Shown: one piece after another, positions 38,083 to 63,301 of the stretch
How the letters are laid out: each line of letters starts with the position of its first letter
How positions within the stretch are numbered: the stretch's first letter is position 1
Source of the DNA: Podarcis vaucheri
Taxonomy: Eukaryota
Reading direction: 5' to 3' (one strand)
DNA length: 64,000 bases
Assembly: GCA_965113315.1 (NCBI GenBank)
Contig: OZ220372.1
Translations under genes and position numbers: made by a program
The notes under the pieces: generated by a model
Told to the model about the DNA's origin: nothing
Databases searched by the model: none
Seen by the model: the letters and a program-made list of their open reading frames with translations, nothing else

Positions 38083-38313
38083 ATATAAACCTTGAAGGCA
38101 ACAGGTTTTGTTTCTCTGAGTTTACTGGATGGAGAGATTTTTCTTTTGATGCGATTAGCTTACCCTTAAGGAAGTGTATTCCTTAAGGCATACATCTCCC
38201 AACAATCTACACAGTGCTACTTATGGAAATAAGAGTTTGGAGCCAGGAGTTGACAAAATATATCGCCTTCTAAATGAATGGGTTGAAAGTAATTTTCATG
38301 TCTGATTTCCTGA

Positions 38314-38433
<120 letters not shown>

Positions 38434-38647
38434 TGAATTATGCATTTGAAGTTTGGGGGGCAGGGGAAGGATATAGTTGAATGTGGTTTTAGCTGTTTGG
38501 CCTTGGATGTAGTTCTGAATGCAAACTTCACTTTGTCCGCATTTGAAGGGTATTTGGGGCAAGCAGATTATCCACAAACTCGTATTAATAATATATGCGT
38601 GAGTCATCCTAAACCTTGATTGCCTCTGATATAGTTAACAATATCGA

Positions 38648-38790
38648 ACATTTTATTTGTATGCTGCCTTTCCAAAGTTAAAACCATGCTCAAGGCAGCT
38701 TACATATATAAAAAATTACATAACTACATAAACATAATGAAGTAGTCATAAACAATAAGCAAAAGTAATCATAAACAAAAAAATCAAATA
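38648..38790 (-). mobile_element. L2-type 3' tail remnant
   Basis: Reverse complement AAGCTGCCTTGAGCATGG...GGAAAGGCAGCATACAAATAAAAT, an L2-like terminal stem-loop plus AATAAA. Confidence 0.55.
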
Positions 38791-39193
38791 TACTTAGCTG
38801 TTTACTGTGTAAAATATCCTTTTTAAGAATGATTTGAAACATTTATTTTAAAAGGAAACTGAAGCCATAATGGTGTGGTATTAGACACTGAATACTATGT
38901 GCCATGTAGCGCCTGGAAATGAATAGAAGCTAAAGTGGCCTATTTAAAATTATATTTTCCCTGCCTTCACCACAAGTGGCATCTGAGGCGGCTGATGTCC
39001 TAGGCCCTGGTCCTCTACTGAGATCCATCTAATTTATGAATCACTTAATGCTTGTAGGAGCATCCCGTTATCAAGTTCCTTGGCTGTTCTGTAGAATGAG
39101 GCTGAGTTTTATATAGAAATCTAGAATAGCAGCTGTATATCCCACATTTACAATATGTGTAGTCGGCTAAGAGTTCTTGTTTTCTTCTTTCAG

Positions 39194-39257
39194 GGAAAGT
39201 TCATCAGAATCAACTTCGATGTAAATGGCTACATTGTAGGAGCCAATATTGAGACCT
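39194..39257 (+). CDS. MYH9: MYH9 exon 7 ([21 protein letters not shown])
   Basis: tttcag|GGA ... CCT|gtatcctt, 64 nt. Confidence 0.96.
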
Positions 39258-39624
39258 GTATCCTTCCCACAGATAGGGAAATCCAAATAACAACTAAAGT
39301 GGGGGGAGGAGGAGAGCACACAGGCATCTTGGCTTAAGAAAAGGTGTGGGCGGATAGTGTTTTGAAGTTGTACTTTGAAGAAGCAACTTGCCTTTTATGA
39401 AGATGATAAAATTTCAGAAGAGCTTGGCAACCTTCGATTGAAGTGCGTATGAGTAGTGATCTTATAGCTACATTTAAAATAAGATCTCTTCCTCAAGTAC
39501 TTGTGATCCAGTTCAACACTAATACATCATTTGTGAACATTTGCGTTAACTCACGTGCACTATGGGCTCAGCTGCTGAGAGCCACGCTAGGGCAGAAGCC
39601 TCAATCTGGCAGAGTACTGTAATA

Positions 39625-39972
39625 CAGTGTTTTTCAACCTTTTGGGGGCAAAGGCACACTTGTTTCATGAAAAAAATCACGAGGCACACCACCACTGTGT
39701 GCGGAGAGGGAGATGTCAGAGCCCCGCTGCTCTCTATGGGGAATCGGATGAGAGCGGACCGCCTGTCCGCTCTCATCCGATCCCATCCGATCTGATCCCC
39801 ACCCAGGATGGATGGAAAATAGGGTGGACACAGTCCGGCGCCCGCCTAGTGGGCGAAAATTTGACTTTTTTTAAAAAAAAAATCTTTTGAATTTTTCAAT
39901 TTTTCCCACGGCACACCAGGCAACATCTCGCGGCACACTAGTGTGCCGCGGAACAGTGGTTGAAAAACACTG
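39625..39972. mobile_element. hAT-Charlie MITE, young, inside the U12 intron
   Basis: Perfect 15-bp TIR CAGTGTTTTTCAACC; perfect 8-bp TSD CTGTAATA at 39617-39624 and 39973-39980. Confidence 0.92.
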
Positions 39973-40105
39973 CTGTAATACATGAGCTGCCTTTTAAGCA
40001 TACCTCATTGAGTCTGAAATAACAACTCTTTGCATCCTCCCCACAAAACCCTTTATTCTGTTCTACCAAACTCCTGCACACTTAAAGTTCATGCAGACTG
40101 GGTTA

Positions 40106-40331
40106 CAGTGGTACCTCGGTTTAAGTACTTAGTTCGTTCTGGAGGTCTGTTCTTAACCTGAAACTGTTCTTAACCTGAAGCACCACTTTAGCTAATGGGG
40201 CCTCCCGCTGCCACAGCGCTGCCGGAGCCCGATTTCTGTTCTTATCCTGAAGCAAAGTTCTTAACCTGAAGCACTATTTCTGGCTTAGTGGAGTGTGTAA
40301 CCTGAAGCGTATGTAACCTGAGGTACCACTG
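40106..40331. mobile_element. Tigger/pogo-like MITE inside the U12 intron
   Basis: TA|CAGTGGTACCTC ... GAGGTACCACTG|TA; repeated TAACCTGA subterminal motifs. Confidence 0.9.
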
Positions 40332-40577
40332 TACTTTGTTTTTGAAAAGTCTTCTATGTATCTTTTTCTTTAGTAGTATGGTGACAGAAGGAGAGGATAA
40401 TATGAACAGAAGTCGAGCATTCAAAGTATAGAGGCTTAATTCCTGAATGTGAGAGGTTTTTGCAAAGACAACTTGCCCAGTTTGGGTCTGAGAAAGATGC
40501 CAAGCTACCTGAGAATCCGTATACATAGAATTTATGTAGACATGGGTCGTTGTTTTTTCTCCCTTAACTTACCAAAG

Positions 40578-40676
40578 ATCTGTTGGAGAAATCAAGAGCA
40601 ATACGTCAGGCCAAAGAAGAACGAACATTCCACATCTTCTATTACTTGCTGACCGGGGCAGGGGAACACCTGAAGA
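40578..40676 (+). CDS. MYH9: MYH9 exon 8 ([25 protein letters not shown]...)
   Basis: ccaaag|ATC ... AGA|gtgagt, 99 nt. Confidence 0.96.
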
Positions 40677-41423
40677 GTGAGTACTTGGTGCTTAAATTAT
40701 AGACTCCTAGTTTACTGGTAGTCTCTTTCGAACTGCTTTGCACAGGCATTCTGTCTTTTTTTAACCCTTTCCTCTTGTATAGTCTTTGTTCCCCCAAGAC
40801 TGATTTAGCTTTGTCAGTCTCAAACAATGTCAACATTTCCTTATCTGAAGGCTGTACTGAGTTAATTAAGGACATGAGAAACATCAGGTTAGGAGTGTTA
40901 ACAGCACTCTTAGAATACTGCAAAAGAATTTACTGAACTTGCAGCAAGTAATTGCCCTTCACATGATTTACGGGTGAGAATATAGGCAACAGGGAGTCAC
41001 TGTTTTTGTAAGTAAGCTGGTTCTGCTGCTTTTTCCGTAAGTGTTGTACCAAATGGGTTATTGAAGTTAGACAACCATTTAATTGAAGTTAACCCAACTA
41101 ACCATTTTTTGTGGGGGCGGGATAGTTCTTACCTGTTTACTACTGTTGCATAACTATCGGCAGAGCAGTGTTTAGATCTCTAGATAAGGAACGAAAAGAA
41201 AAAAAGATTCACGTGACCTTTTCAGATGGAAACAACATTAAGCTTCTGCTTAATGTTGAAGATCTAGCAATTGCTGGAATGCAAGAATACTTAGCCTAGG
41301 GTTTAATATAGGAGGCCTAATGCAGGCATCCTTAATACCGAGTCGTTGTATATTTGAGTTGTCAGACTTGTCATATAAGCCTTGCTACTTGCCCTGAATG
41401 TTTACCCTGAAGTTATGCACTAA

Positions 41424-41648
<225 letters not shown>

Positions 41649-41803
41649 TAAATAACAGTGAAATTCCTAAGCACCTGGATACTTTGAGTTGTTAAATTAG
41701 TGATCTGCATGTGCCTATCTGGGGATGTTAGATAGTGGCCTTTCCCTGCATTCAGGTTAATTTTGGCAAGTACCCTTTTTCTGCAAAGAGAGGTTTCAAA
41801 AGG

Positions 41804-41808
<5 letters not shown>

Positions 41809-41874
<66 letters not shown>
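41809..41874. repeat. Compound microsatellite (CT)17(CA)16
   Basis: Direct reading. Confidence 0.95.
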
Positions 41875-41878
<4 letters not shown>

Positions 41879-42215
41879 CAAGTAGCTTGCCAGCCTACAT
41901 TTCAAGCTGCCCAGCTTTCTTTCCACCTTATTTGCAAGCTTGGTTAAAACAGCTGCTCCTACCGCTTTGTGTTGTGGATGAACATCCAGTGTAAAGGTTT
42001 TTAGATAATTTGTTGTGTATTTAGCAGATTAATTGCGCTGCAGAAAGCGTGCTGGGGAGACCACACATTCAGGAAACAATGAAGATACACAAAAATATCT
42101 TTTGCTTGGCTTTAATTACAAAAACAAAAACTCCTTTTACATCCAATCTATAACTATGACCCATCCATAGACCCATTCACCAGGGTACTGAGAGAGGCAC
42201 ACGCTGTTCTTTATA

Positions 42216-42571
42216 CAGTGGTACCTCGCAAGACGAATGCCTCGCAAGACAAAAAACTCGCTAGACGAAAGGGTTTTTTGTTTTTTTGAGCTGCTTCGCA
42301 AGACAATTTTCCCTATGGGCTTGCTTTGCAAGACGGAAACGTCTTGCAAGTTTGTTTCCTTTTTCTTAACACCGTTAATACAGTTGCGACTTGACTTCGA
42401 GGAGCAACTCATAGAACGCGGTGTGGTAGCCTTTTTTGAGGTTTTTAAAGACTTTGGTGATTTTTGAAGCTTTTCCAAAACTTTCCCGACACCGTGCTTC
42501 GCAAGACGAAAAAAATCGCAAGACGACAAAACTCGCGGAACGAATTAATTTTGTCTTGCGAGGCACCACTG
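42216..42571. mobile_element. Tigger/pogo-like MITE
   Basis: TA|CAGTGGTACCTCGCAAGAC ... GTCTTGCGAGGCACCACTG|TA; about nine GCAAGAC-like motifs. Confidence 0.9.
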
Positions 42572-43748
42572 TATACTATACCCAATTGCTGACACTGCTT
42601 AATTAATACAACTTAACAGCACCTGCTATGCTATTTCACAGCTGTAAAACTAGGTCATGATATTTACTCTGGCCTTTAAAGAGATACACATCTTGTGAAA
42701 CAATAATGAACCTTAATATTTAAATAAACCATTCAACATAATTGAGTGATGAAAAAATGCTCCTCCTTCCCTGTTTCAGCTGCTGAACGCATTAAATACT
42801 ATACAGTATTAAGCATGTGAAGATCCCACATCTGGAAGGCAGGTGGTTTGAAAGTCTGATTTTAGGCTCAAGGCTTTAAACCTCTTTAAAACATGTTTGT
42901 TTAAATTGAATAAAAAGTAACTTTTTGGCTGGAGAAGTTGGTCCATCTGATGGAGCAAACATACAGTAGGAAATCATATCTGTGTTTTTGGAGTGACTTA
43001 TATAGGTTGCCTTAGCTTGGAAGTTTGGAGCTTGGGATGTTTAGCCAGAAATAGACAAGCCCCACAGGGGTACTGAAACCTAAAATGAGATGCTTGACTT
43101 TGAAAGAGTAGAGTATCTGCAGGCCCATTTTTTCCACAGCTAATATTTAATCATGATACTCTCCCCATTGTGTTGTTTGGGGCGAAGTCTGTGATCCTCC
43201 CATAGGCTCTTAACTCATGAAGAACAGGCAAGTCAGTAGCCCTCATTGATTGGAGACAGCAGCATGGTTCATAGTAAACTTGCAGGTGCTGTAACGTAGT
43301 ACTGTATCCTGAGTGTCAGAATCCTTAGTGCACCAAGGTCCCTGCCCGTAAGACATACCTGACTGCAGATGTGGCATCACAGGAGACAGGGCCTAGTGAC
43401 TGTCTGCATCTGTCAATACAGCACTGGACTCAATGTTTTGGGGTAACTTAATTGTAGGTGACTCTGGAGTCTACCTGCTTCAGTGCTGGCATTGCCACAC
43501 AATGTTAGTGCTATTACTTTGTGCTTTAGAAGCTTGGAAGATTAAAAGGTCATTTTATAAACGTCATTGTATATACAATATCAGTGCTCCTCCTGGACCT
43601 TTTATGAGTGGACCCAAATGTTTCATTTTGTAAGCTGCTTTGGGTCACTTGTGAAAAAAGACTAATAAATGCTATTATAGTAACATCCACTCTCCTCTTT
43701 CATAATAAATCTGTTAGGCAAAATGTGTCAGTCTCTTTGTATTACATA

Positions 43749-43792
43749 TTCTGCTACCAAATACTGATGCCTTTCAGTATTTGGTAGCAGAA
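43749..43792. repeat. Perfect 19-bp inverted repeat with 6-nt spacer
   Basis: TTCTGCTACCAAATACTGA-tgcctt-TCAGTATTTGGTAGCAGAA. Confidence 0.95.
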
Positions 43793-44331
43793 ATGATACA
43801 TTTTCTGAAATGTCACAGGTTGTAAGATTTTTTCTTTTTTAAAATTATTTTCGTTGACTTGTGGGACGCATGAGCTGGATGATAATAACGTCCAACTTAA
43901 GGCTCAGATGCCTCTTTTGAGCCATCTTGCCTTTTCCAGGAATTACTGTTTCTTATATTTCTGATCAGGCATGCATGTAATTGTTTTGTAGGCTGTATGG
44001 TCAGAATATAAATCTAACATGAATACATTGTGTAACCAAAAAGGTACTAGATGGAGGTTTGGGAAGGCTTAGAAAATTCCAAGGTTTGTAGAAGTACCAA
44101 GAAATATTGAGATAAAAAAAAAAAGGTGGATGACCCTCCGAAAACATGGAAGACTGGCTATTGGGTAAGAGGAGAAATGGTGTGGAGTATTGTGGAGGAG
44201 GCCATGGCTGACTGGGACAGTGAACAGAAGCATTTTGTTGCAGATCCATTTGTGCAATTCTGATATACCAAAAGGCTAGTGGGAATGAAACAATTGGTCA
44301 GTCGTTCATCTGTGCCTGGTTTGCTTCTTAA

Positions 44332-44466
<135 letters not shown>

Positions 44467-46010
44467 TAAATTCCCCCATGGGCTGGAAGTCGGGGCTGCT
44501 TTGTGGAAGAGCCCACTTCTTAAAATGTTGGCATCACATATGAAGTCAGACGAGAGTGGAAATATGTACTGTAGTGAACTCTAGTGAGTGTGTGCAGCAC
44601 AGCAATACCCTTGATGGCTTTTTGATGTAAACTGGATATCCTCGGTAACTGCTGTTGCCTCCTGGTGGCAAACATATTATCTACATGTAAATATTGGGTC
44701 ATCCACTGTCTAATTGCAACCACCCGTCAATAGGCACATGTAATGCCTGTTGCTATTACATTATAGAACGCAGAACAAGTGAAGGAAGGGGTGTAGAATG
44801 TAGGGAAAGAGTGAGGGAGCAGCGTCAGTTGGTGGTAGCTGAAAGGAAAGACGCAGAAGAGAAATGGAGGACATAGGAGGAAGAGAGTAGACAAGGCATC
44901 GAGAAGGTGAGGAAAGCTGAACATGGGCAACAAAATTAATAGATAGCAAGCAACTGTGTATGATTGGGATTAACTACAGTGACACAAACTTGACTGGTTT
45001 GGGGTTGGGTCACTTGCAGGAAGTTGATCATCAAAACTAGATACTGATTCTTGATCTATAGGAGTGAATATCTCTCCTCATCGATATTTTAGAACAAGTA
45101 TGCATTACAGACTTTCTTGTGCCAGGCAGAAGGTGAATGAGGGAACAGCCAGAAACTGAGTTCCAGTTGTGTAATGGGAGCTGGCATGCATTTAGGACTT
45201 GAGTGGGGTTGTGATGGAACCTGCTTCCAATTCACGGCTGAAACAAATTAGTTTAAATGTCACACTTGCCCTCTAATATCAAATGTGAAACTCCTGACTG
45301 AGACAGATGTTTTGAAATTGCTGTGATCATGGTTTCTGGCATTTGAACACCAAATGTTAGAAATTTGATGCCAAGCCAGAGGGGCAGTAAAACCTTGACT
45401 CAGTAAGCCAGACCTGATGCCATCTACAACTCAAGTGCCTTAAATGGTGAGGGGAAGTGTAGCCCTGAATCAGGGAGTCTTTCATTCATAAATGCTCATG
45501 GAATTGGTGGAGCCACCAGCAGGTACTCGAGTCTGCAAGAAATTGTAAGCAGCCAAGTGTAAGCTGTTGAAAAACCTTCAGAAATCAGCACACCTTTCTT
45601 AGTAACTCTGAATTTAGTGCTTAAACTGATTTACGCCTTGGTAATCAGGCTTGTAACTGAGATATTTATTTGGTAGTGCAAGTCTGTCAATCAGAAACAG
45701 GCAGGGATTGTTGCCATCCTTTCCCAGAAAACCCAATAACTATTTTATGATCGCATGTAAATCTCACTGTTCTTTCAATGTGGAACTCCTAGGTGCATAG
45801 GGTTAGTAGGTAGGCATCTCTCATTCAGACGGTGACCAGAATTTTTCCTGCCTGGTTTCAGCAAGCTGCTACATACTTTGCCTTCAGATCATGCACTAAA
45901 CCTAGAGTTTCTATAGCAAATGAGTGGTATACACAAAACAGTAATCAACCCTCTGTATCTCTATCTGTGGCACACAAAGAAGCAACAGTTTCAGCTTTCT
46001 CTGTGTTTGA

Positions 46011-46421
<411 letters not shown>

Positions 46422-46539
46422 TGACAATTGATGGGGTTCCTAATGATTCAGGCACTGCAACCTTAAATTTAACAATTGTGATAGTGTTTTTTGCCATCTG
46501 GTTTGGGTTGTACATGTGACTTTCACTCCCTTTTTTAAG

Positions 46540-46692
46540 GCTGACTTTGCCATTGAGGCTCTGGCTAAAGCCACTTATGAGCGCATGTTTCGTTGGCTGG
46601 TGATGCGTATCAACAAGGCACTGGATAAGACAAAGAGACAAGGAGCATCTTTCATAGGAATCCTTGACATTGCTGGCTTTGAAATCTTTGAG
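46540..46692 (+). CDS. MYH9: MYH9 exon 12 (switch II DIAGFE)
   Basis: tttaag|GCT ... GAG|gtaagt, 153 nt. Confidence 0.96.
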
Positions 46693-46872
46693 GTAAGTAA
46701 AGGGCAGCCACACTTTTAAATTCCAACATCCTGTGTTTGGATATTAGTGTTGCTTAAGGAGGGATGTCAGCTAAGAACCTTCATTTGAACTGTGGTCCTT
46801 CCAGTTTCATCCCAGGGCTCAACCAGGAAGGAATTCAAGGGAGCCCACCTTTGATGTACTGGACCATAGTGT

Positions 46873-47338
46873 AATAATAATAATAATAATAATAAATTTT
46901 ATTTATATCCCGCCCTCCCCAGCCAAAGCCGGGCTCAGGGCGGCTAACAACAATCAAATAATCAGTCAAATAATCACACAATCTAAAATATTTCATTATA
47001 AAATTAATTAAATCAAATTGATGGCAACCAATTATGCAGAATTATGTGCAGGTTGCCAGAGGAGGGAGTCAGGCTGCGCCCTGACCAAAGGCCTGGCGGA
47101 ACAACTCTGTCTTGCAGGCCCTGCGGAAAGATGTCAGGTCCCGCAGGGCCCTAGTCTCTTTTGACAGAGCATTCCACCAGTTTGGAGCTGCAGCCGAGAA
47201 GGCCCTGGCTCTAGTTGAGGCCAGCCTAACCTCTCTGAGGCCTGGGACCTTGAGGATGTTATTATTTGCAGACCGTAGGTTTCTCTGTGGGGCATACCAG
47301 GAGAGGCGGTCCCGTAGGTACGAGGGTCCTAGGCCGTA
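46873..47338 (-). mobile_element. L2 LINE, 5'-truncated young 3' fragment
   Basis: Minus strand encodes uninterrupted YGLGPSYLRDRLSWYAPQRNLRSA...RAFSAAAPNWWNAL...FRRACKTELFRQAF (L2 ORF2 C-terminus), then 3'UTR stem-loop and (TTA)n tail. Confidence 0.9.
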
Positions 47339-48161
47339 TTCGAGTATACGAGTATACGTACTCGTATCACATAATTTTTTCAGTGACCCCAGGCAGCAAG
47401 TAGGAACAAAATAGAATTCTTTTGAAGAGAAGCTAGAGACATTCTTAAAGTCCAGTGTAAGCTCCTCTTCTGAAAGATTGTGGCTTGGATCTTAACTAGG
47501 GTTCCACAAATGGAAGGTCTCCTTCCATGGGCTGGACCAAGATCCAGCAGAGCATCCCTCTAGCAGAAAGAGGAACAGGCGGTTTGTGCTGATCACCCCC
47601 CTCCCTGCACTGTGTCTTATTGTACCCCAGAGGTCCCCCAACCCTCTAGACCGGGGGAAAAAGGGGTGCATGGGATGGGAATTGGCAATTCTCGTTTTCC
47701 CCATCTACTGGTGGGGGCATTATGAGTGCAACTCCCCTCAGGGGACACTGCAGCCAACATGAGCAAACTCAGGGTCCCATCCTAGTTTTCAGCGTTAGAT
47801 GTAATATTATGGTCTTGGTATGCCTGAAAAATCCAAAATGACTGTGTTTAAAAATGATTTTGGAACAAAATAAATAACCTTAATATAATGTTTGCTGTCA
47901 AATACTCTTTCTTTCAGCAAAGTACGAATTGGCATGCAGGATTGCTGCTAAGTGGAGAGCAGATGTCTGCTGCTCCAAGTTTAGAATTGATGCTCAAATG
48001 AGTGCTGCTAAGCACCTAACAAGATGCATTCTCCATCTCAGTAAATAAGGCAGTGGAGAAACTGTAGTTGAATGTTGGTTCAGAAATGGGGATACTAGTA
48101 GGTAACCGTTTGGTGGGCAGCATTCACCTAGACCTGCATTGTTCTATTTTTCCGGAATTAG

Positions 48162-48335
48162 CTGAACTCATTTGAACAACTGTGCATTAACTACACGAAT
48201 GAGAAGCTGCAACAGCTCTTCAATCACACCATGTTCATCCTGGAGCAAGAAGAATACCAGCGTGAGGGCATAGAATGGAACTTCATTGACTTTGGCCTGG
48301 ATCTGCAGCCCTGCATTGATCTTATAGAAAAACCG
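48162..48335 (+). CDS. MYH9: MYH9 exon 13 (relay helix, [21 protein letters not shown]...)
   Basis: aattag|CTG ... CCG|gtgagt, 174 nt. Confidence 0.96.
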
Positions 48336-48487
48336 GTGAGTGACTCATGCATTGTGTCCTGGGTAGTACAGAACAGTTATTGCAGTGAGCTTAAGGCCCT
48401 TATGCACAAACCTCTTGATTTATGCTAAGAAGCTGAATTTAGCTACATAAGTGTGGTCTTATGAGCATACGAGGCCACCACCTTGCT

Positions 48488-48600
48488 GCAGCTGAGGTAG
48501 TTGAATATGGTTAGTCCCTAGGTATGAAACTGCCTGGGAACAGCATGTAAGCAGCCTTGGGTTCCATGGTGGAAGGCAGGCATGTTATAAATAAAAGATA
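48488..48600 (+). mobile_element. Degenerate 5S-rRNA-like head plus L2-like tail (SINE3-like)
   Basis: GCAGCTGAGG...TGGTTAGT...ACTGCCTGGGAA resembles the 3' half of 5S rRNA; followed by GTAAGCAGCCTTGGG...GGAAGGCAGG...AATAAA. Confidence 0.4.
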
Positions 48601-48788
48601 ATAAATTTAATTTGAATAAACTTGCAAAAACTCATTTAAATGTAGAATTCTTATTATGAAAAATGGTATATAAAAGGAGCAAGAAATGGGATAGTTTTAG
48701 AGACTGCTTATGGCCAGTCTGGAAAGCTGCTTTGCTAAGAGCAATAGATAGATTTCATTTTGTGCGCTTTTCTTGTTCAAAACCATGA

Positions 48789-49100
<312 letters not shown>

Positions 49101-49565
49101 TAGGCTAGTGTAAGCTATGTAGTGATCAAGTTCCACATTAGGAAAGGAAGCAGTGTGCTCCTATAAAAGTCTACGGCTTTCCATTTAATGGCAAGGCACA
49201 TGAACTGTTGCCGATCCAGCCTTTCCGTTCTTCTCACAGTGGCAGATTAAGCACTTGTTGACTAGCACTTCTGAGGTGCTCTGGATAATTCACATTGGTG
49301 GTATCCAACTAAGTCATAGCTGGAATAGACCCACTGAGATCGGTAACTTAAGTTTGTCATGACTTGAAGCCCATTGACTTATGTGATCTACTATGAGTTA
49401 AATCATACAAATAAGCTATAATTAAGCTTCACCACTTAGTACAGTATCTTTAGAATCATGTTCCATTTCAAGAGTGGGACAATCATAGTTTTGCCTCTTT
49501 TTCCTCAATACTGAGGCAAGGTTAATCTTTTGTAGCTAATATTAATGAATTAATTTCTTCTCTAG

Positions 49566-49685
<120 letters not shown>

Positions 49686-50094
49686 TAACCAGATTTCTTG
49701 CATATTTTTCTTAAAGAGTGCTTATCCAATATCTTCAAGCACTTTATATACAGGGGCTTTCCACTCCCTTAAAATGACAGTGATCACTGCGATCCAAAAC
49801 TTGTGTATGCTTTATTCTGAATACTATCCTCCTCTTGTTGCTGAACTGAGGAGAGATTGGAAAAGGGTCAAAATGTCAGGGGCAGGCAGCATCCCAGAAT
49901 AACATTCAAACCGATGTTCCTTGTACTTTACCACATCCAAATATGGGATGTAATGAGATGAAACCAAATATTGCCTCTAAGGATTTCTTTGCTTATTCCA
50001 GTGCCATTAGGTATCTTGCACTCTGGATTATCTGCTTTGACTCTCACTGTTACTATCTCTTTTCTTGGGTTTTTCTTTGACGTCTCTGTTGCAG

Positions 50095-50157
50095 AGATGC
50101 AGAACGTTCAGAGAGCCTATTTCTATCAACAGTTTCCTATTCTTCATCTAGAACCAG
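50095..50157 (+). CDS. MYH9: Alternative loop-2 cassette exon ('A2', EMQNVQRAYFYQQFPILHLEP), homolog of MYH10 B2 insert
   Basis: Long pyrimidine tract + gttgcag|AG ... CAG|gtgact; 63 nt, symmetric phase 1, no stop; peptide aligns to recalled B2 sequence EIQNIQRASFYDSVSGLHEPP. Confidence 0.88.
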
Positions 50158-52000
50158 GTGACTGAGAAACCCCGGGTGTCGTGTCGTGTGTGATTCCTTC
50201 TAGAGCCATGCAAGAAATGCTTCCAATAAATCTTATCTGCCCCTTTACCATTCCTGCTTGTCTGTCTCATTCAGTCCCTCTGCTTTTTTTGCTAGTAGAC
50301 CCTCTTGGGCTTGGAAAATAACTGATCTTGTTAACAAGGTGTGATCACACAGGCACAGCAACACAAAACACATGGATGGTACTGCTTTAGTGATTCATAA
50401 AAATAGCTATCTAATGTCTTTGTTTAAACATAGACCTAGTAGGTGGCTTCTGAGAAAAAATTACTGTATAAATTATTTTATTGCTAGTGGTGCCATATGG
50501 AGTGATGACCATATGTGGCTCTAACCTGAATATTTTTGTGTATGAGGAGCAGTAATTAGGTACTCCAGTGGCTAAAGTTAAAACTATAAATGTTACTGAT
50601 CCAAAGGATGCAGCTAATCATCCTGGGTGAAGTTTCTGTTCAGAGAAATTACACATTTTGCTGCCTCTGTGCAGATTGCTGATGTTTAGCCATCAATTTT
50701 AAGAGAAGTTGCCAGTCAACTTTATGAATGCTTTTCTTAAGATTCCATTCAGGAACACAACTTGTTTTTACATCAGTCTTGACTCTACTGTTGTTGGTTT
50801 TTTTGAGGGGGGTGAGGCATCATAATTTTAAGCACAAGTACATTATCCCTTAGCAATGATCTTGTCTTTCAGTCTCTAATGCAGTCCTCTTTTTTGACAT
50901 ATTAAAGGTCTTCCTTTGAGTCTTCTCTTATTTTTTTAGGGGAGAAAGAGCTTTTGACAGCCACATGCTCATTGAGATATGTGAAACAGTGGCTGGCTTG
51001 AGTGCACAATTCAGTGGTTTGGTGGATTGCATTTTAAAAACCTGATCTATCCCATTAGGCTCATTCTGATGATTAGAATGACTAATTTTGGTTGAACTAT
51101 CTTTTGTCCATTGTAGTAATATTAAGAGAGGGGTTTAATCATCTTACATAATTTATTTCTTTTATGGCACATGGCGAACTGGTAAATAAAAGAATTGAAC
51201 AAAAGGCTTAGTTGCTTTTAGCACTGAGGGACAGTTGCTGTGACATGCTAATACTAAACTGCCTCCTTGTGTCCAGTGAGACAAGTTGTTCCAGCTAAAA
51301 CACACGCACATTATAACATGGCACACTGGGCAGTGATTTCATAAATTCTATCATTTATGACCCATGGGATATACCAGGGACAGACTCCTTATCAGAGTGA
51401 GAAGGAGAAATGAATCTTGTTAATATATTTAGCTTACAGATGTTGTCTGGTACTAGAAAATGGATTTTTAAATCACATCTGATTCTCTACACCAGGTCTG
51501 ATCAAATATTTTAAATTTTACAGCAGGAACCCTGTAAAAAAATCCCAAGTGCAGTCTTGACTTGACTGTTGACTGCTATAACTTTGTCTTACATAATTCC
51601 ATTACTTGAATTGGTTGCATTCATTGGAAAATATTGAGTCTGTAGGGGCTAGCTTTGTGAGAAGTGATTTTCCTTTTTGATTACATCAAGCATGAGAGAG
51701 AATATTTTGTCCAAATCAAACCCATTGTGCCAGTTCTACTTTACTCCTAGACCTTGGCATAAAATTGCAGTTTAAAATCTCTCAGGCATGAGATGGATCT
51801 TAGTTTTAATAGTCGGCTGCTTTCTTCCCTCCTTGTTTTTGCCCAATACAAATGATGAATTGGTCCTCCACATCTGTAGAGGAGTGAAGCAAATGGATCC
51901 TGCAAACTCCTTTTATCCTTGTTGTATCCAGATATGTTAGGCATTCTCTCACCAAAGCTGTTTAGGGGAAAATATTAACAATCTGGTGTCTTTCCTCTAG

Positions 52001-52194
52001 TTGATCGCATAGTTGGGCTGGATCAGGTGGCTGGCATGTCAGACACAGCATTGCCTGGGGCCTTTAAGACCAGGAAGGGCATGTTCCGAACAGTAGGACA
52101 GCTGTACAAGGAGCAACTGGCCAAGCTGATGGCTACCCTGAGGAACACCAACCCCAACTTTGTCCGTTGCATCATCCCCAACCATGAGAAGAAG
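52001..52194 (+). CDS. MYH9: MYH9 exon 16 (loop 2, actin binding)
   Basis: ctctag|TTG ... AAG|gtaatg, 194 nt. Confidence 0.96.
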
Positions 52195-53105
52195 GTAATG
52201 CATATCAAAAGAAGCATTGTACTATACAGTACTCACATATCAGAAGTGGAAGATTAATATAGATTGCCACTCTTGCCTGTATTACTGACTTCAGGGGTAG
52301 GGGATATTGAGGGGAAAAGCAGCTGTATCCCTACCTTTGTATGTGGCTGCTTTAGCTTGTCTTGGATTTTTTCTTGTTGTTAATTCTTTGCGAGATATGC
52401 TGTGTTTACTCACTATATGACTATTAGAAGGCACCTTTTCATTGCACTTGGAAAGATCTTCGCAAACCTAATGAGAAATAATGGCATTTACTTAGTACTA
52501 AAATAGTGAAGTATTTAATTATGCCCTAACTTTCCATTTTAAAGAACATCCTTAGTGACTTGCAGTGGGAGTAGGGGTTGAGAAACGAACTCTCCCCCCC
52601 CCATTAAAGAATACAGGAACAGTGTTTGTTGTTCGCTGGCTGGCTTACAATAAACGAAACATACAGCCTGGAATCCAACACTGCATGTGTAGCCTTCTGC
52701 TTGCACAATAGGACAAGACAACTTGCAACATGGGGAAAAAATAGCCGCAACATAACGAAAGTAATCGTAATGAATAAATAAGATTGCGAAAATACACAAC
52801 CAAACTAAACAATTTCCACACAAACCTCAAGATCTAAAATATACAAAAACCCATCAGCAACAACCCACCGCCAACTCAACAACACCCCAGCCCAAGATTC
52901 TGTTAAGTTGCCTCAGCTTTTGTAGCTGGAGTTATTCAGGGCCCCAACCTCCCAGGCCAGATGGGAAAAGGCTTGCAAGGCAGGGATGTTGAAGCATGAT
53001 TGTGACTGGACTTCTCTTGGAGGGGTGCAATTTAAGCTGCTAGAAATGCTCCTGTTGATTACCACCAGGGGATCCACAAGCATCTGCACTCATGTCCTAT
53101 AATAA

Positions 53106-53249
<144 letters not shown>

Positions 53250-53686
53250 TAAAACTGAGGCATTGGCTTTAATCTGCATGGTATTGAATGCATTATGTGA
53301 AGTGTTCGTAGGTTGTCAGAGGTCTCTGCATGTAGTTTGTAAAGATAATTGTCTTGCCAGTTAGCAGTCTATTCTTCATAGGCAGCCTTTTAAAGCCCCT
53401 GGTCAGCCTCAAGTAGTGTCAGAGGCCCACTCAGTAGTTATATGGTGTTAGCAGGCCAGGGTCTTGCTTCCAGGACCACTTTCACGACTCTTTTTGTCTG
53501 TGTTATCAGGTAACACCCCAGAGAGATCTTGAGTTGCATTCCTGCTAAGTGTGTTGAGACTTGACTGGGTACCCTTCTTGACAATAGTGGTTGTTACATT
53601 GAGTTTACATGTGCTTTATAAAAAAACTAGCCAAATACTCATACAAATATGAGCTAGTGATATAATGGTACCATCTTCCCTTTTAG

Positions 53687-53756
53687 ATATGAGATCCTGA
53701 CTCCAAATGCCATTCCCAAAGGGTTCATGGATGGAAAGCAAGCCTGTGTTCTGATG
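53687..53756 (+). CDS. MYH9: MYH9 exon 18 (converter)
   Basis: ttttag|ATA ... ATG|gtaagt, 70 nt. Confidence 0.96.
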
Positions 53757-54351
53757 GTAAGTCCTCTGCTCCTGTTGTTGATAACGTAAGAAGGGATTAG
53801 GGGAGCAATATACAATCCATTAGGTAGACATTTCAATAATTCATATTTAGTGTTCTTATGAAAAGTGTGCTTCTATTGATGACCTGCTGGACCTTGGCTT
53901 ATCACTAATGAATCATTACTGTGGAGCAGTGTTCTTAAGTTGTTGCAATTTCAAGATGGAACTGGCATGCGTCTGAATTCCACATTACCTCCTGATGGGT
54001 TTTTCATTCATGAGAAGGAGTATGTTTCAGGGCATGCTCTTCAACAATCACTGGTGACAGCAGCTCCTAAACCACATACATTTTAAAGATGCACTTACAG
54101 TGCAATCATAACCATGTCCTGTCAGGAGCAAGTCCTGTTGAATTACGTGGGCATTACTCCCTGGTAGTAGGAATTAGGATTACAGCCTTGGATTATTCTT
54201 TGTATGAGCATCTCAGCAGGAAAGCTCAGGTCTCTCTTATTTTCTTCAGTGGCATTAAGTCACCATGGAACAGTTATTGTGTGAAGAAATACACCGCATT
54301 GCATTCTCTTCATTAGTCAATGATAAATATTTTCTTCTCATTGCCATTTAG

Positions 54352-54531
<180 letters not shown>

Positions 54532-55114
54532 TAATCCTTCTTGTTAGCTAACATCTGCATCCAGTTGGCAATAAATTGCTAGCATTCTGAATTCTAGATA
54601 ACTTTGAAAAACACCATTTGGCCTAGGCTCATGATTTTCTAACAATTCAGGAAAGCTTGAGAGATTACTTCCAAGGTACACACAAGATGGAATATCTAAA
54701 TTCCAGGATGCTGAGCTTTCTGAAGTTCCCTCTTTACTGTAAAGCTTACATTTGAATCAAAGTAAAATGTTACCACACTCTTAAGAATGAATTGGCTCTG
54801 GAATTTTCATCACAATTTGTGCAAATACAAGAATAAAGCATCAAAATTATATTATGAAAAAGTGCTGGTGGCATTTGTTCCACTATGTGGTATTAACCCA
54901 GTAGGACAGAACTAGATTGAGATGGGAAATATGGAGTGACTGGTGACTGAGTCATCTCCCCCCCCCCCCCGCCAAATGTTCACACAAATAGTGGTAAAAG
55001 ACAAACAAAAGAAAGCAAACATAATGTTTGAATGGAAAAGGCATGATATAGTGGGAAAAGCAAATGAAATATTTTAATGCGGCTTTGTAAGTAGGGTATC
55101 TAGCTTTTATCTGA

Positions 55115-55279
<165 letters not shown>

Positions 55280-55510
55280 TGATAGGCAGTTAGGCTTCAG
55301 AGCCAAACAAGAGCATGTCATCCTCTCCCTTAAAGACACTGTCTCTGGTTCCATGTCCTGTGTTGCATACTTAGGATTGGCCCTCCTTCCAATGGACTTT
55401 GTTGGCCATTAGGAGGGACACCAGGGCTCTGAAACTGTGCAAGACAAAGCAAGTGTTCTGCAGCTGGCTGATAAGCGTGGGTAACTTGTGCTCCAATTGA
55501 TTCCCTACAG

Positions 55511-55642
55511 GTGAAGCCTTTGCTGCAAGTGAGCAGGCAGGAGGAGGAGATGCTGGCCAAAGAAGAAGAGTTGGTCAAAGTCAAGGAAAGGCAGCTGGCT
55601 GCAGAAAACAGAGTGTCTGAAATGGAAAATCTCCAGTCACAG
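55511..55642 (+). CDS. MYH9: MYH9 exon 21 (head-rod junction VKPLL)
   Basis: ctacag|GTG ... CAG|gtgaat, 132 nt. Confidence 0.96.
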
Positions 55643-56264
55643 GTGAATAGATGGTTGTCATTCATAAAAGTGGCCAATCAGCTCCTTTGTTACATATATG
55701 TGCTTGAAAGTCATGTAGTCATCATAGCTGATCTTGAATAGTGTTTTGTAAGTGAATGGTTCTTTGACGCACACTGCGCATTGGGGGCACAAGCTAAAGA
55801 GCTTGGGCACAGGCCCATAGAAGAATGCATATATGCTAATTTATAATTTATATCCAGCTGCCTCTGGACAAATTATAAGTGGGTGGCTTAAGGTCTCACC
55901 AGCATTGTGCTGTAAGCAAAGTTGTTATTATTTTTTAATAAGTTTAAAGAACAGGGTAGAAGTGGGCAGGGAATACATGCCCTGGCACACAAAATGGGCC
56001 TTGGACCCTCTGGGCCACCCTGCTAACAATGTACAAAGGTGTAATCAGGTTTGAATCTGAACTTCGTGTCTGATAGAGAAGGAATTGTATAAAGCTTTTA
56101 ATTCAAAATGTAGTGTAGTGTAATATCCGCCAGACTTCCGCTTCTTTTTCAGTGCACCATTGTGTGAATAAAATCCAGCAGGTTTTTAAAAAATAGCTGA
56201 TTCCATCTTTAGTAAAATAACAGAAGCCTCAGATTGACTTAAGAGATGTGTTTGTTTTGTGCAG

Positions 56265-56471
56265 CTCATGTCAGAGAAGATGCAGCTGCAAGAGCAGTTG
56301 CAAGCAGAAATTGAACTCTGTGCTGAGGCTGAAGAGATCAGAGCTCGCCTGCAAACAAAGAAACAGGAGCTAGAGGAGATCTGTCATGACTTGGAGGCAA
56401 GAGTGGAGGAAGAGGAGGAGCGGTGCCAGCATCTGCAAGCTGAGAAAAAGAAAATGCAGCAGAACATTCAG
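56265..56471 (+). CDS. MYH9: MYH9 exon 22 (coiled coil)
   Basis: gtgcag|CTC ... CAG|gtaatg, 207 nt. Confidence 0.96.
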
Positions 56472-56718
56472 GTAATGGGCTATAATTTAACACTCAGCAG
56501 CTGTTATAATCTTTGGTACATAGTGGCGTCTCAGTAGGAAGTGTAGAAAATGATGCTGCTTCAGGTAAACCCTGGGACCATGTTTGTTTGCTCATCTCAT
56601 GACTAGCTGTTGATATGCATAGACCAATGTATGGCCTCGTGACCATTTTAAAAGTATGGTAAGCGGTCCAATGTTTATCTAGCTAATAAATGCATATATT
56701 CTCTTGTTCCTTGTACAG

Positions 56719-56856
56719 GAACTTGAAGAGCAATTGGAGGAAGAGGAAAGTGCCAGACAAAAGTTACAGCTGGAGAAAGTGACCACTGAAGCAAAATTGA
56801 AGAAGCTGGAGGAAGATCTGATAGTTTTTGAAGATCAGAACTGCAAACTGGCCAAG
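56719..56856 (+). CDS. MYH9: MYH9 exon 23
   Basis: gtacag|GAA ... AAG|gtaaag, 138 nt. Confidence 0.96.
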
Positions 56857-58312
56857 GTAAAGCAGAAACAGAGCTCCCGTGTAGTGGGATGATAGGAGGA
56901 AGGAAATATAGACAGCATCCATGAGAACTGAGGTGCTCTTGTTATTGGCTTTCTTTGGCATGTTGGTGCCACCTGACAGAGATTACTAAAGATATACTTT
57001 GCATGAAGGAGCTGATATTCTATCCACATGCAATTTCATTGGCCTACTGGGCAGATACCATCTTCATATCACCTTTCTGAAAGAGTTCATGCAACCTGGG
57101 ATTTCCCCTCACCCCTGGCACTCCCAGCTTCATCTAGAGTTGCAGCCGAGTTTTCGTGAGCAAGCTATTAGGAAATCATAGCTGTGTCCAAATCGGAATG
57201 TTCTAATTTGGATAGAAAATAACATATTGTTGTACTGGTTCCAGTAAAAGGATTTTTTAATTTTAGCAAGTCTGTTCTAGAAGAATCCTGTCAAAGCACT
57301 GGAAGAGTCAAAGTACTATTTTAATTCAGCCCCTGTGCTGAACAGCAGGACCACCCACACACCAGCCCTTTGCAAATTAATCAGATTTTTTGCTGCAGTT
57401 TGCATGAGCCCAGGAATACATAGAATATCTGAATAACTGTACCTTGGCTGAAAAAGCAAGGCATAACTACTTAGTAGAAAAATGGATCAGAAAAATGGAT
57501 TAAAAAAAATGGTGAGGATGGTTACATTTTGTCCTGTGAAAAGTACATAGAGGAAGTAGGGGAAAGCATCACTCTTCCAACATAATACTTCATTTCTAAG
57601 TGCTTTTCAAGACTCATTTATTTTACCCAGCAAATATGTATGCATGTGCTTTCTGTCCCATGCCCTTGGAGGCGGCGGCGGGGGGGGGGGGGGAGAGAGA
57701 TCTGGGGAAGCAGAGACACCATGAGCAGCATATTAATCTTTATCATATAGTCAAGAGGTATCTAGTAATCTTCCTGGGAAAGTAGGTGGGCCAAACAGTT
57801 GAGCTCTCTTAAAAGTTCATTCTTGTGGCTGTTAGAGCAGTACAGGATTCCTGATCCAAACAAGCTGATCCCTGTTCAAGCCTTCATTACAGTAGGTACC
57901 ACACACATGGAGGAGTCAGTGGGAATGGCCAAGACTAGCCCTGCTCCTTCAACACTACCCCAGGCTCATGAGTACTGAATGCCTAAATAGAACACAAACT
58001 AGATTGCAGCACTCCAGTGCTGAATGAGAATTGGGGTATCAAATGCCCACTTGCTTCTGAGAGAACATTAGGCTGTTTGCATCAAAACTAAACACTGCTG
58101 TCTTTTAATAAAATACGAAGCCTGAGTAGTATTGGTAGCTATTCCACTGTGTTTGGGTGATCTTCAACCCTTGTGACACTTCCAGGGTATTTGCTTTCTA
58201 ATGAAAAATCAAAAGCATTGCAAAGAGTTGTTAAGGTATTCTCAACTGGCTGCAGGTATTCTCAAATACCTGTATTGTTTCTTCAATACAACTCATACCT
58301 TGTTTCCCCCAG

Positions 58313-58436
58313 GAAAAGAAATTACTGGAAGAAAGGATTGCAGAATTCACCAGTAACTTAACTGAGGAAGAGGAGAAGTCAAAGAGTTTAGCTAAACTCA
58401 AGAACAAGCACGAGACTATGATTACAGAGCTGGAAG
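58313..58436 (+). CDS. MYH9: MYH9 exon 24
   Basis: ccccag|GAA ... AAG|gtaggg, 124 nt, [16 protein letters not shown]... Confidence 0.96.
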
Positions 58437-59132
58437 GTAGGGAAGGGCCTAAGAGTGTGGCTTTAATCAGCTTTTCCTCCATCAGCATCTCTCTCTCTGC
58501 ACAGTGTGTTGTACATTTCTGACCATGTTGGCTTTTAATGGGTTAATACCACTGGGTTTGTAGGACAGGTATTGATCAGTTTAATAGAACCATTCAGTGT
58601 ATGGATGGCTGAAGGTTACACACTGCCAGCTTAGCTTTAGTTTGAACAAAAACAAACCTCTAAAACAGCCCAATGGAGAAGAGCAGCTGGTTCCATTTCG
58701 CCTCCTGCTGTGGGAATATTTCTGCTCTTGTGTATTCGGTGATACCGGAATCCTGGGGTTTGTGCTGCTTCTACTACTGACTTTAAAAGATAAGTTTGTG
58801 GCATTGCTAATAAAGCTGGCATATATGCCGTTGCTTAATTTGACTTTAAAAAAAAAAGACTGAGGGCATTTTCAGCATTGTGCTCAGAATGCCTGTGGTG
58901 GTTTTCCACAGCTGGAAATAGTACTGTCTGCCTTAACTGAACAGTCTTATGGAGGGGATTGAATGAACACTGAGGAGTTTGAAGGGCAATACCGTCAAAC
59001 TCACTCTTTGACATGGGTACCTGAACTGGGAGCTGTTACTGTGGCCCATAATTGTTGACACATTTGGATGCAGGTTCTGGCACTCTGGCTCTTCGCATGA
59101 AGTATTGCTTAGGGCTATAAGAGCCAAGATGA

Positions 59133-59336
<204 letters not shown>

Positions 59337-59887
59337 TAAGGCCTTGGTCATGGAATTAAATGTCTACGTGGAAATTAGGAAAAGCAATAAATTTTCCTTT
59401 GTGTTCTTTTAGCTGGAATCCTGAGATTTCTCTAAATGGTTTTAGGAATGAAAGACCTCAGTTTAGCTGGTAACCCTGTTTCATGCAACTGCAAATGTTG
59501 TATCGGAAGGAAGTTAATTTTTAAATGGGATCTGTTGCAGAAATTACTGGTCTGCATAGCTTGATAAGATCAGGAGGCAGCAATAAAGTAAATAGTTGGC
59601 ATGTGCTGTGGACCATAGAAGTTCTGTGCCATAAATTAAGCTCCCACTTCAACCTCTCCAACTTAGTACAGTATTGACCTTCTATTTTGTCTTGGAGGCT
59701 GAAACGAAGCATTTCTAGTACAAGCCAACTATGGTTATAACAAGGCCAGAGCACTGGTGTGTTGTCAGGTTAGCATTCAACACTAACTTCTGTTGCAGTG
59801 CATCCCTAACCTGTTTCTGCATTCGCTGGGACTTACTTGCAACTTAAGTGTGTAGAATCGCAGCATTAGTAACTTTCTTGTAGATAA

Positions 59888-60163
<276 letters not shown>

Positions 60164-60425
60164 TAGCTGCAACGTTCGGTGTTTGATACTGCTCAGACCA
60201 ATTCCACCTCTTCAAAATATAGAGGGGAATAGTGGGTCCAGCAGATTTTACACTTCCAGTGGAACTTGTTGCAAAACTTATTCTTCCTATGCCATGTTGT
60301 TCCTTTCAATTTGTACTTTAGTAGCTCCACAAATAAGTGCCAATCTTCCAATTGCACCCTTGGAACTCATATTGCACTGCATTCTCAACTACTATCTAAT
60401 AGAAATATATCTGCCTTTTAAAAAG

Positions 60426-60570
60426 GTCAAAACGTGAACAAGAAGTGACTATTCTAAAGAAGACTCTGGATGATGAGGCAAAGACCCATGAGGCACAGAT
60501 CCAGGAGATGAGGCAGAAACATGCCCAGGCTGTGGAAGAACTGGCAGAGCAGTTGGAGCAGACTAAACGG
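60426..60570 (+). CDS. MYH9: MYH9 exon 27
   Basis: ttttaaaaag|GTC ... CGG|gtgtgt, 145 nt, [14 protein letters not shown]... Confidence 0.94.
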
Positions 60571-61059
60571 GTGTGTGAGATGTTGGAAAGTTTTTAGTGT
60601 GCAACATATTGTGCTTTTACTATTTTTTGTTGGGAGCTGCCCAGAAATTTTTCCACCCCCCCCCCGAGTGCGTAAAGCTGAAAGCGCTCAAATTAAATGG
60701 GCATAAATTGCTAGTTACCTGTAATTTGAGAGAGCAATGTTGCTGAATTGTGCATATTCTTGCTTACCACCTACTTTTATGAATACATTAGTATTAACTA
60801 CCTAGAATCTTTTTAGTTTCCTTTATTGCCATGAACATCCTGCCTAAGTGAGGATGAAGCTTTAATTCATAGCATCACCTGTACAGCTGTGGAAACCTGC
60901 AGATTTATTGCTCAAATAGTGTTTGGGATGCTGAGCCCAAATTGCAAATCTGTCTTTTGCATCAGGACCACAATTTGGAATAATGGGCTATGAATTTGTT
61001 AGTGAAATCAAATTTTCTGCAAAGACCACACTAAAGCTTTCTGTTCCCGTCTCCTTCAG

Positions 61060-61266
61060 GTGAAAGTGAACCTTGAAAAGGCAAAGCAGGCACTAGAGAG
61101 TGAACGTGCTGAGCTGTCCAATGAGGTGAAAGTTCTTCTTCAAGCCAAAGGAGACTCTGAGCACAAGAGGAAGAGGGGTGAAACTCAACTTCAAGAGCTA
61201 CAAGTGAAATTCACAGAGGGGGAGAGAGTACGAACTGAGCTGGCTGAGAGAGTTAACAAATTGCAG
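61060..61266 (+). CDS. MYH9: MYH9 exon 28
   Basis: cttcag|GTG ... CAG|gtgagc, 207 nt. Confidence 0.96.
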
Positions 61267-61730
61267 GTGAGCTTTCTGTGTTGGTTCCATTTGCCCTCCT
61301 ATTCATTGTGTTCTGGTTTTTAGCACAGAATTTAGAGTGGGAAGTGGGGGAGAATTGGGTTGGGGCTGCAGTGCTGCTTTACTCCTCCTGAAGTTTTGAC
61401 TCTCAGCTGTTCTAACATGATCCGTATTTATGTTGTTACTTTTCAGCCCCAGTAACTTGCATTAAACAAAAAGCTCGTTTGGAGATAATATGAATTAGTC
61501 CACTATCCCTTGATTACACCAACTGGGGACAATAAGCCGATAGCTGAAGTGGTGGGTGGTAGTTCTGATGGGCATCAAGTGCCTAAAACTCCTGTTGTTT
61601 AGCCTTAACTAGTATGGAGTGATTTATGACGATGCTGCAGTTTCTCTCCTGCTCAACAGAGGGGAAAATTGATAGTAAATGGAAGCTCTTTATTAATGGG
61701 ATTGGTTTGACTTTTCTTCTAATTTTTCAG

Positions 61731-61835
61731 GTTGAGTTGGACAATGTCACTGGTCTTCTGAATCAATCTGACAGCAAGTCAATTAAACTGGCCAAAGATT
61801 TCTCTACGCTGGAGTCTCAGCTACAGGACACACAG
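61731..61835 (+). CDS. MYH9: MYH9 exon 29
   Basis: tttcag|GTT ... CAG|gtgagg, 105 nt. Confidence 0.96.
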
Positions 61836-61896
61836 GTGAGGCTTTAAAGTGCTACAGAAATAGGTGAAAAATCAATTAGCTACACCAAAATGTGGC

Positions 61897-62240
61897 AGGG
61901 ATGCAGTTGGCGCTGTGGTCTAAACCACAGAGCCTAGGGATTGCCAATCAGAAGGTTGGCGGTTCAAATCCCCGTGACGGTCCCAGCTCCTGCCCACCTA
62001 GCAGTTCGAAAGCACGTCAAAGTGCAAGTAGATAAATAGGTACCGCTGCAGTGGGAAGGTAAACAGCGTTTCTGTGCGCTGCTCTGGTTCGCCAGAAGCA
62101 GCTTATTCATGCTGGCCACATGATCCGGAAGCTGTCTGCAGACAAACACCGGCTCCCTTGGCCTATAGAACGAGAGGAGCGCGCAACCCGAGTCGTCCGC
62201 GACTGGATCTAATGGTCAGGGGTACCTTTTCCTTTATCTT
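61897..62240 (+). mobile_element. Sauria SINE, older A-related copy with internal deletions
   Basis: AGGGATGCAGTTGGCGCTGTGG head, ACCTTT-like tail, degenerate flanking repeat TAC(A/T)CCAAAATG. Confidence 0.9.
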
Positions 62241-63148
62241 TACTCCAAAATGCAAACCTAATATATAAACCTGATTAATCATGACAGATCTGTTAGACTG
62301 ACAGAAAAATACAGACTGCAGAACAGCGGATGAGGTCCCCACAAATAGTGGTTGATATTTGTAACCAAAATACGTGACCACCAGAATCTTCTTCCTTCCC
62401 TAATGGGGATATATCTGTCACAATGAGCTATAGAGTTGCTCTGAACAACTTCAGGCTTGGGAGGAGGCCTGTGGTTCCTCAAAGTCCATGTTTTGGAAGC
62501 ACAGTGCAACTGGATGAGCCCCAACCCTCCTTCCAAGCTTGGAGCAGGGAATTGTACTTGCAATCAGGCTACATTTTGAACGTGTTCTGAGAACATAAGA
62601 CGCACAGGAGAACTGCAGTCATGATCCCCTCTTCACCGTTCCAAGCTCAGAAACAGATTTTAGGGTTAACCATGTTTGTCAGATTCAGAGTAGTGGTGGT
62701 GCAGGTTTCTGCATATAATCTATAATCTCTGAGGAGTTTGGCAATACTTTATATTAAGAGTAGTTAACTTTAGCTTCTTTTTGTAACTATAGTTGCAACA
62801 CAGATCAAAGTCTAGAGCAATTTAGATATACCAGTCTTCATAATCTCCTTATAACAGCTTGTCTGTCATGCTGCTCCCCTCCAAATGCCTTGTGCCGCTA
62901 CTGGAATGTGGGCTTCCACTGGCAATTCATCCCAAGGGCCACATAACTTTTTGAGGGGAATCTCCACTAGTCTACTAAACTACATTTTGTGGGTCACTCC
63001 AACTGATTTCTGGGGACAAATTAGCTTGCTCAGTGGTATTGAGCCATTGTTTAAGGTTCTCTCTGCTTCAGATGTGATATATATTTGGAAAATTTTACCG
63101 GACTTTTCATCATAAGAGACCAAATCTTTGTTGTGGTGGCTCTTGCAG

Positions 63149-63301
63149 GAGTTACTTCAGGAGGAAACTCGTCAGAAGCTGAGCCTCAGTACTAAGCTGA
63201 AACAGATGGAAGATGAGAAGAACAGCTTCAAAGAGCAACTAGAGGAAGAGGAGGAGGCAAAGAAGAACTTGGAAAAACAGATTTCTGTCCTTCAGCTTCA
63301 G
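63149..63301 (+). CDS. MYH9: MYH9 exon 30
   Basis: ttgcag|GAG ... CAG|gtactc, 153 nt. Confidence 0.96.

Follow-up and report, generated by a model that had tools for sequence, protein, structure and literature searches.

The 63-nt exon at positions 50095..50157 (+ strand) of a 64,000-nucleotide stretch of Podarcis vaucheri DNA, hereafter called the window, is the A2 exon of the lizard MYH9 gene, orthologous to that of mammals. This cassette exon, defined by the sequence, its homologues and the gene model, encodes a 21-residue insert, EMQNVQRAYFYQQFPILHLEP, for loop 2 of the myosin motor. The anatomy of the exon, its host gene, its orthology and the conservation of its peptide and donor are directly observed in the lizard. 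By analogy with mammals, we consider it likely, with a probability of about 0.9, that the lizard A2 exon is mostly skipped, that it is included at a low level in neurons and possibly in muscle, and that its product is a nearly inactive NM IIA acting as a brake or a tether.

The gene model spans coding exons 1 to 31 of a non-muscle myosin heavy-chain gene (18598..63995, + strand; 1463 amino acids when spliced). It shares 96.4% identity with the skink myosin-9 X1 (P0025) and 93.2% with human NM IIA2 (P0084), as compared to 74.8% with a gecko myosin-10-like protein, and the four top matches to the spliced model are all squamate. In addition, there is a match to the EIF3D family about 85 kb before the start codon; MYH9 and EIF3D are linked in the human genome. 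This pattern of identities, together with the nearby EIF3D, establishes that the host gene is MYH9. The genome's MYH10, MYH11 and a fourth paralogue all reside on contigs other than that of MYH9. The window also contains an approximately 350-nt repeat, which resembles a Sauria SINE, in two subfamilies: three copies that are mutually 99% identical (7152-7520, 13681-14049 and 26002-26355 (-)), suggesting recent activity, and four older copies that are 78-90% alike (4655-5000, 20568-20877, 21534-21889 and 61897-62243). An Rfam scan of positions 1-48000 of the window returned no match.

The A2 exon lies between two constitutive exons of the gene model, exon 15 (49566..49680, +), which ends with ...LWKD plus a single G, and exon 16 (52001..52194, +), which encodes VDRIVGL... 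It is in phase 1 at both ends, and its first nucleotide is the second of a Glu codon, a GAG split by the intron. The acceptor is TTGCAG/AG and the donor is CAG/GTGACT (the slash marks the splice site), and inclusion yields the stop-free frame ...LWKD-EMQNVQRAYFYQQFPILHLEP-VDRIVG... The coordinates, the frame and both splice sites bear out the first-pass annotation of this DNA, which had proposed a 63-nt symmetric exon between WKD and VDRIVG. Chance is excluded and the exon is confirmed as real, because 20 of its 21 residues are identical to the inserts of annotated reptile and bird myosin-9 proteins. Two other identities for 50095-50157 were rejected: MYH10 B2, since the host is not MYH10, the C-terminal half agrees at 2/10 residues and the genome possesses its own B2 exon, and MYH14 C2, since the insert, of 21 residues rather than 33, belongs to MYH9. 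No solved structure contains the A2 insert, as judged from a PDB search with the 21-mer, which gave 0 matches at E values up to 10, and from the top-matching myosin-9 and myosin-10 chains, which have the non-inserted lengths of 1960 and 1976.

How well is the insert conserved? The lizard peptide is identical to human IIA2 (P0084) at 17 of 21 residues (9/11 in the N-terminal half and 8/10 in the C-terminal half), with Asn4, Val5, Gln12 and Gln13 where the human insert has Ser, Thr, His and Arg. A by-eye comparison with the printed mouse peptide (PMC10480317) gave 16/21 identical residues. The lizard exon and the mouse and human A2 exons have in common the gene, the position between exons 15 and 16, the length of 63 nt, the split GAG codon, the GTGACT donor and a branch-point motif at -54. 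The C-terminal half had been described as divergent; this is correct relative to B2 (2/10) and incorrect relative to human A2 (8/10), as this half is the conserved A2 signature FPILHLE(P/S).

When the exon and the intron upstream of it were used as the query, all 24 candidates proved to be matches, namely 22 myosin-9 models and two read-through ORFs. The insert is 20/21 identical to those of the 22 full-length models, which come from birds, crocodile, turtles, gecko and skinks. The separation of the lizard from other reptiles and birds spans about 280 million years. A second search, with the inserted loop of a skink protein as the query, yielded 300 matches of 776 candidates, of which 120 were listed. 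All 120 full-length homologues among the matches listed carry the insert, as expected from searches that select insert-bearing proteins and to which insert losses are invisible. The insert has 21 residues in 112 of the matches listed, 25 in three and 22 in one; four fish rows missed by the pattern, in which the insert is visible on inspection, are excluded from these length counts. The matches listed represent gar, teleosts, squamates, turtles, crocodile, birds, a marsupial and placentals including human IIA2, with no amphibian or cartilaginous fish among the 120; the non-mammalian entries are mostly predicted gene models. Thus, the exon is not specially “kept functional in squamates”, as had been proposed, since it is annotated also in fish, birds, crocodile, turtles and mammals, including human. 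The broader proposal of an intact, B2-related and ancestral MYH9 loop-2 cassette exon agrees with the anatomy, the host gene and the homologues.

Within the 112 listed inserts of 21 residues, Glu1, Gln3, Gln6, Arg7, Ala8, Tyr9, Phe14 and His18 are invariant (8/21 columns), and four more columns are conserved in 111/112. Residue 13 is Gln in the lizard, and is His, Arg or Cys in 112/112 others among the matches listed. Because Gln13 is unusual and the net charge of the lizard insert is -1 as compared to 0 in human, the kinetics of lizard A2 may differ somewhat from those of human A2. At the nucleotide level, 55 of 63 positions are identical to the human cloning primers, as compared by eye. Synonymous codons are changed at 2/16 sites in A2 versus 5/8 in those parts of the flanking exons that the primers cover (Fisher P = 0.02, with small numbers), and this low synonymous change hints at a constraint on the RNA as well. 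Some cyprinid myosin-9 models (P0118-P0121, and other fish rows) are predicted to lengthen the 3′ end of A2, giving 25 residues ending with GDIF, or an insert ending with PGEM. Several predicted fish myosin-9 models also have short inserts in loop 1, while no A1 was found in mouse.

Next, the signals surrounding the exon were considered. The A2 acceptor is preceded by an AG-free, pyrimidine-rich tract (50011..50092, +; 40 T, 19 C, 14 G and 9 A), which had been estimated as CU-rich and about 82 nt long and is exactly 82 nt by count. Among the 30 acceptors of the gene model, whose AG-free zones have a median of 33 nt, it ranks second longest; the longest zone (90 nt, window 63673-63764) belongs to the constitutive exon starting at 63765. 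The tract includes a candidate branch-point motif, CTCTCAC (50041..50047, +), at -54 from the exon, and mouse A2 has ctctcat at the same -54 position (PMC13158602 Fig. S2). At the other end of the exon, the donor CAG/GTGACT overlaps UGACUG, a listed mouse RbFox site (50155..50164, +), and the donor 9-mer is identical in lizard, mouse and human. Our own weight matrix, built from the other donors of the gene, gave the A2 donor 8.9 bits (rank 20 of 30, counted from the weakest) and did not rate it as weak, while the published MaxEntScan value for the same 9-mer is 6.60. The description of the A2 donor as “weak” rests on this published value, because our matrix showed no weakness. The motif GCATG does not occur within 1.5 kb downstream of the A2 exon, the nearest being at 51690; for mouse A2, a canonical RbFox site was likewise not found (PMC13158602).

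A UG-rich element, GTGTCGTGTCGTGTGTG (50176..50192, +), is located 19 nt behind the A2 donor, in agreement with the first-pass annotation. It is the richest UG/GU stretch behind any of the 30 donors (12 steps, the next having 9), and its score of 12 UG/GU steps is reached at five places in the window. The YGCY motifs that had also been pointed out, which could be read as MBNL sites, are present (six in 250 nt), and are without enrichment (3.4 expected, P = 0.13). The window segment 49680-50390 aligns to the read-through ORF P0002 of another genome, which includes a stretch resembling GTGTCGTGTCGTGTGTG. This alignment covers the intron before A2 and about 230 nt of the one after it, so that the surroundings of the exon can be aligned between species. 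CELF-type proteins bind UG-rich elements and PTBP-type proteins bind pyrimidine tracts. Proteins of the CELF and PTBP types may thus bind to the UG-rich element and to the long pyrimidine tract, respectively.

The A2 isoform has already been published, together with its biochemistry and the control of its splicing, and the lizard exon is of a known kind rather than a discovery. A paper by Li from 2008 on MYH9 splice variants reportedly describes the 63-nt exon. NM IIA2, the product of the A2 exon, is known from mouse and human; Das 2023 cloned, expressed and assayed it (PMC10480317), and GenBank OQ689691 is the accession cited in this literature. The label “uncharacterised” that had been given to the lizard isoform is therefore contradicted by this work and by a 2026 splicing study (PMC13158602). 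According to Das 2023, A2 accounts for about 15% of the transcripts in mouse brain and about 5% in muscle, and the protein was detected in brain and undetected in muscle (PMC10480317). The actin-activated ATPase of human NM IIA2 was about 20-fold lower (Vmax of 0.017 and 0.004 per s vs 0.38), near-inactive with or without phosphorylation, and actin gliding was absent (PMC10480317). Moreover, NM IIA2 slowed NM IIA in mixtures, with 20% A2 myosin reducing gliding about fivefold, and it retained the ability to tether actin (PMC10480317). The authors hypothesized, and did not themselves test, that the A2 insert blocks the actin-activated phosphate release, and they reported similarities of 48% and 29% among the human loop-2 inserts (PMC10480317). 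In a 2024 review, the inserts known for loop 2 are given as A2, B2 and C2, and loop 2 is described as beginning the contact with actin (PMC11335295).

As for the splicing, Mallick 2026 attributed the skipping of A2 to the GTGACT donor (MaxEntScan 6.60, vs 8.57 for exon 15 and 8.17 for exon 16), and its inclusion to RbFox proteins, which in a mouse minigene act on GUGACU or close to it (PMC13158602). In that study, MBNL1 and NOVA1 had lesser effects, and neither intron deletions nor a branch-point change raised the inclusion of A2 (PMC13158602). The expression and kinetics of NM IIA2 have thus been measured in mammals.

The same genome allows a comparison with the paralogous exons. A search with exon 16 found three further genes at 80% identity, and all three non-muscle paralogues of the genome (MYH9, MYH10 and the probable MYH14) possess related loop-2 exons. 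The locus L010 is MYH10, with Myosin-10 as its best PDB match and a NUDE-family gene 40 kb away. Its B2 exon, EIHNFQRASFYDNVTGLPDTP (63 nt; L010:7039-7101 (G000:C10)), is intact, with the donor CAG/GTGAAT, rated as optimal in mouse (PMC13158602), and a GCATG motif about 90 nt downstream. A2 and B2 share the same length, position and phase, and are identical at 7/11 of the first residues, 2/10 of the last residues and 43/63 nt; they differ in that B2, which belongs to MYH10, has Ser at residue 9, where A2 has Tyr. The first-pass annotation had given eight matches to B2 in the first 11 residues; against this genome's own B2 the count is seven. NM IIB2 is likewise a low-activity neuronal isoform (PMC10480317, PMC11335295).

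The locus L009 also has Myosin-10 as its best match, but without an adjoining NUDE-family gene, and it is probably MYH14, by elimination only. A POLD1-type family tried as a synteny marker for L009 was uninformative, being on the same contig but about 20 Mb off. The loop-2 exon of L009, EIQNIQKVYFFDSYAVASQGPAE (69 nt/23 residues; L009:7862-7930 (G000:C34)), has the donor GTATGT and a 151-nt AG-free zone. A search with this exon gave three matches among 12 candidates: the gecko and rattlesnake models splice in the 23 residues, and the third match is preceded by intron-like sequence. The N-terminal half of EIQNIQKVYFFDSYAVASQGPAE resembles A2 and B2, and 6 of the first 11 residues are common with A2. 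The mammalian C2 insert of MYH14 occupies the same position but has 33 residues (99 nt) as compared to 23 residues (69 nt), and renders the motor independent of phosphorylation (PMC10480317, PMC13158602, PMC11335295). The remaining locus, L011, is MYH11; in its matching intron of about 120 nt (L011:9300-9420 (G000:C36)), no loop-2 exon was seen. This short intron holds a GCATG motif.

In pairwise comparisons of the first 11 residues, A2 and B2 match at seven positions, A2 and the third exon at six, and B2 and the third exon at five, each reached in at most 1 of 100,000 shuffles. Because of these N-terminal matches and the common position and phase, descent of the three exons from one ancestor is the plain reading. 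Tyr9 is found in 112/112 listed 21-residue A2 inserts and in the L009 exon. The first-pass annotation stated that the B2 serine is replaced by Tyr in A2; the difference itself is real, while its direction may be the reverse, as Tyr occurs in two of the three paralogues in this unrooted comparison.

What would the A2 exon do in the lizard? On the mammalian pattern, A2 would be skipped by default in most cells, with low inclusion in neurons and perhaps also in muscle, so that the earlier expectation of a “probably neural or muscle” isoform appears right, as a probability. Inclusion would lengthen loop 2 of the motor by the 21 residues without a shift of frame. The inserted myosin IIA would bind actin and form filaments while scarcely turning over ATP, possibly because the insert blocks actin-activated phosphate release, as hypothesized for the human protein. 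In mixed filaments, such a motor would brake NM IIA or serve as a tether. The mammalian precedent makes it likely that the lizard isoform is produced and behaves in this manner.

Alternatively, A2 could owe its conservation chiefly to a role in the RNA or to a binding surface unrelated to motor function, with the aromatic insert (YFY...FPILH) providing a docking site or an actin tether. The low inclusion in mouse (15% in brain and 5% in muscle, with the muscle protein undetected), the low synonymous divergence, the invariant aromatic residues and the retained actin tethering by IIA2 are all consistent with this idea. However, A2 is not a poison exon, as the frame is kept without a stop, mouse brain contains the A2 protein, and 20% A2 reduces gliding about fivefold; moreover, a tether and a brake are compatible with each other. 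We therefore regard this alternative as unlikely. It is highly improbable that the reptile A2 forms a C2-like motor, active without light-chain phosphorylation, as a lineage-specific gain. NM IIC2 does show that a loop-2 insert is capable of such activity, and four residues are unlike those of human A2, but the 17/21 identity is to an assayed insert that is near-inactive with or without phosphorylation. Equally improbable is a silent relic that is never included in this lizard: although Gln13 is unique among the matches listed, the frame, the splice sites, the branch-point motif and the flanks are intact, the peptide is 20/21 identical to those of other reptiles and birds, and the flanking intron is alike in another genome. 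The mostly skipped, nearly inactive NM IIA isoform is thus the reading that we prefer.

A wider reading, which we offer tentatively and hold to be doubtful, is that A2, B2 and C2 derive from one loop-2 exon predating the MYH9/MYH10/MYH14 duplications. The shared N-terminal module (E-x-Q/H-N-x-Q-R/K-x-Y/S-F-Y/F) would then be the brake, the squamate MYH14 isoform would be a brake as well, and the always-on C2 of mammals would be a later reversal. If this is true, the inserts would form a natural series in which to trace the residues that turn an off-state loop-2 insert into an always-on one, a matter that the 2024 review calls unclear (PMC11335295). The less familiar point here is the probable MYH14 with a 23-residue A2/B2-like exon in place of the 33-residue mammalian C2.

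The A2 exon is already present in the gene models of other squamates. Our search, in a body of literature with few subscription papers, turned up no study of A2 from outside mammals, and the 10-species alignment in Fig. 1A of PMC13158602 may include non-mammals. The value added by the lizard exon is therefore the depth of conservation: the peptide, the donor 9-mer and the branch motif are common to the lizard and mammals, and the peptide extends to gar and teleosts. Zebrafish or chick could thus serve for an A2 knockout. Such conservation between lizard and mammals, and as far as gar and teleosts, argues that the low-abundance A2 isoform has a real job.
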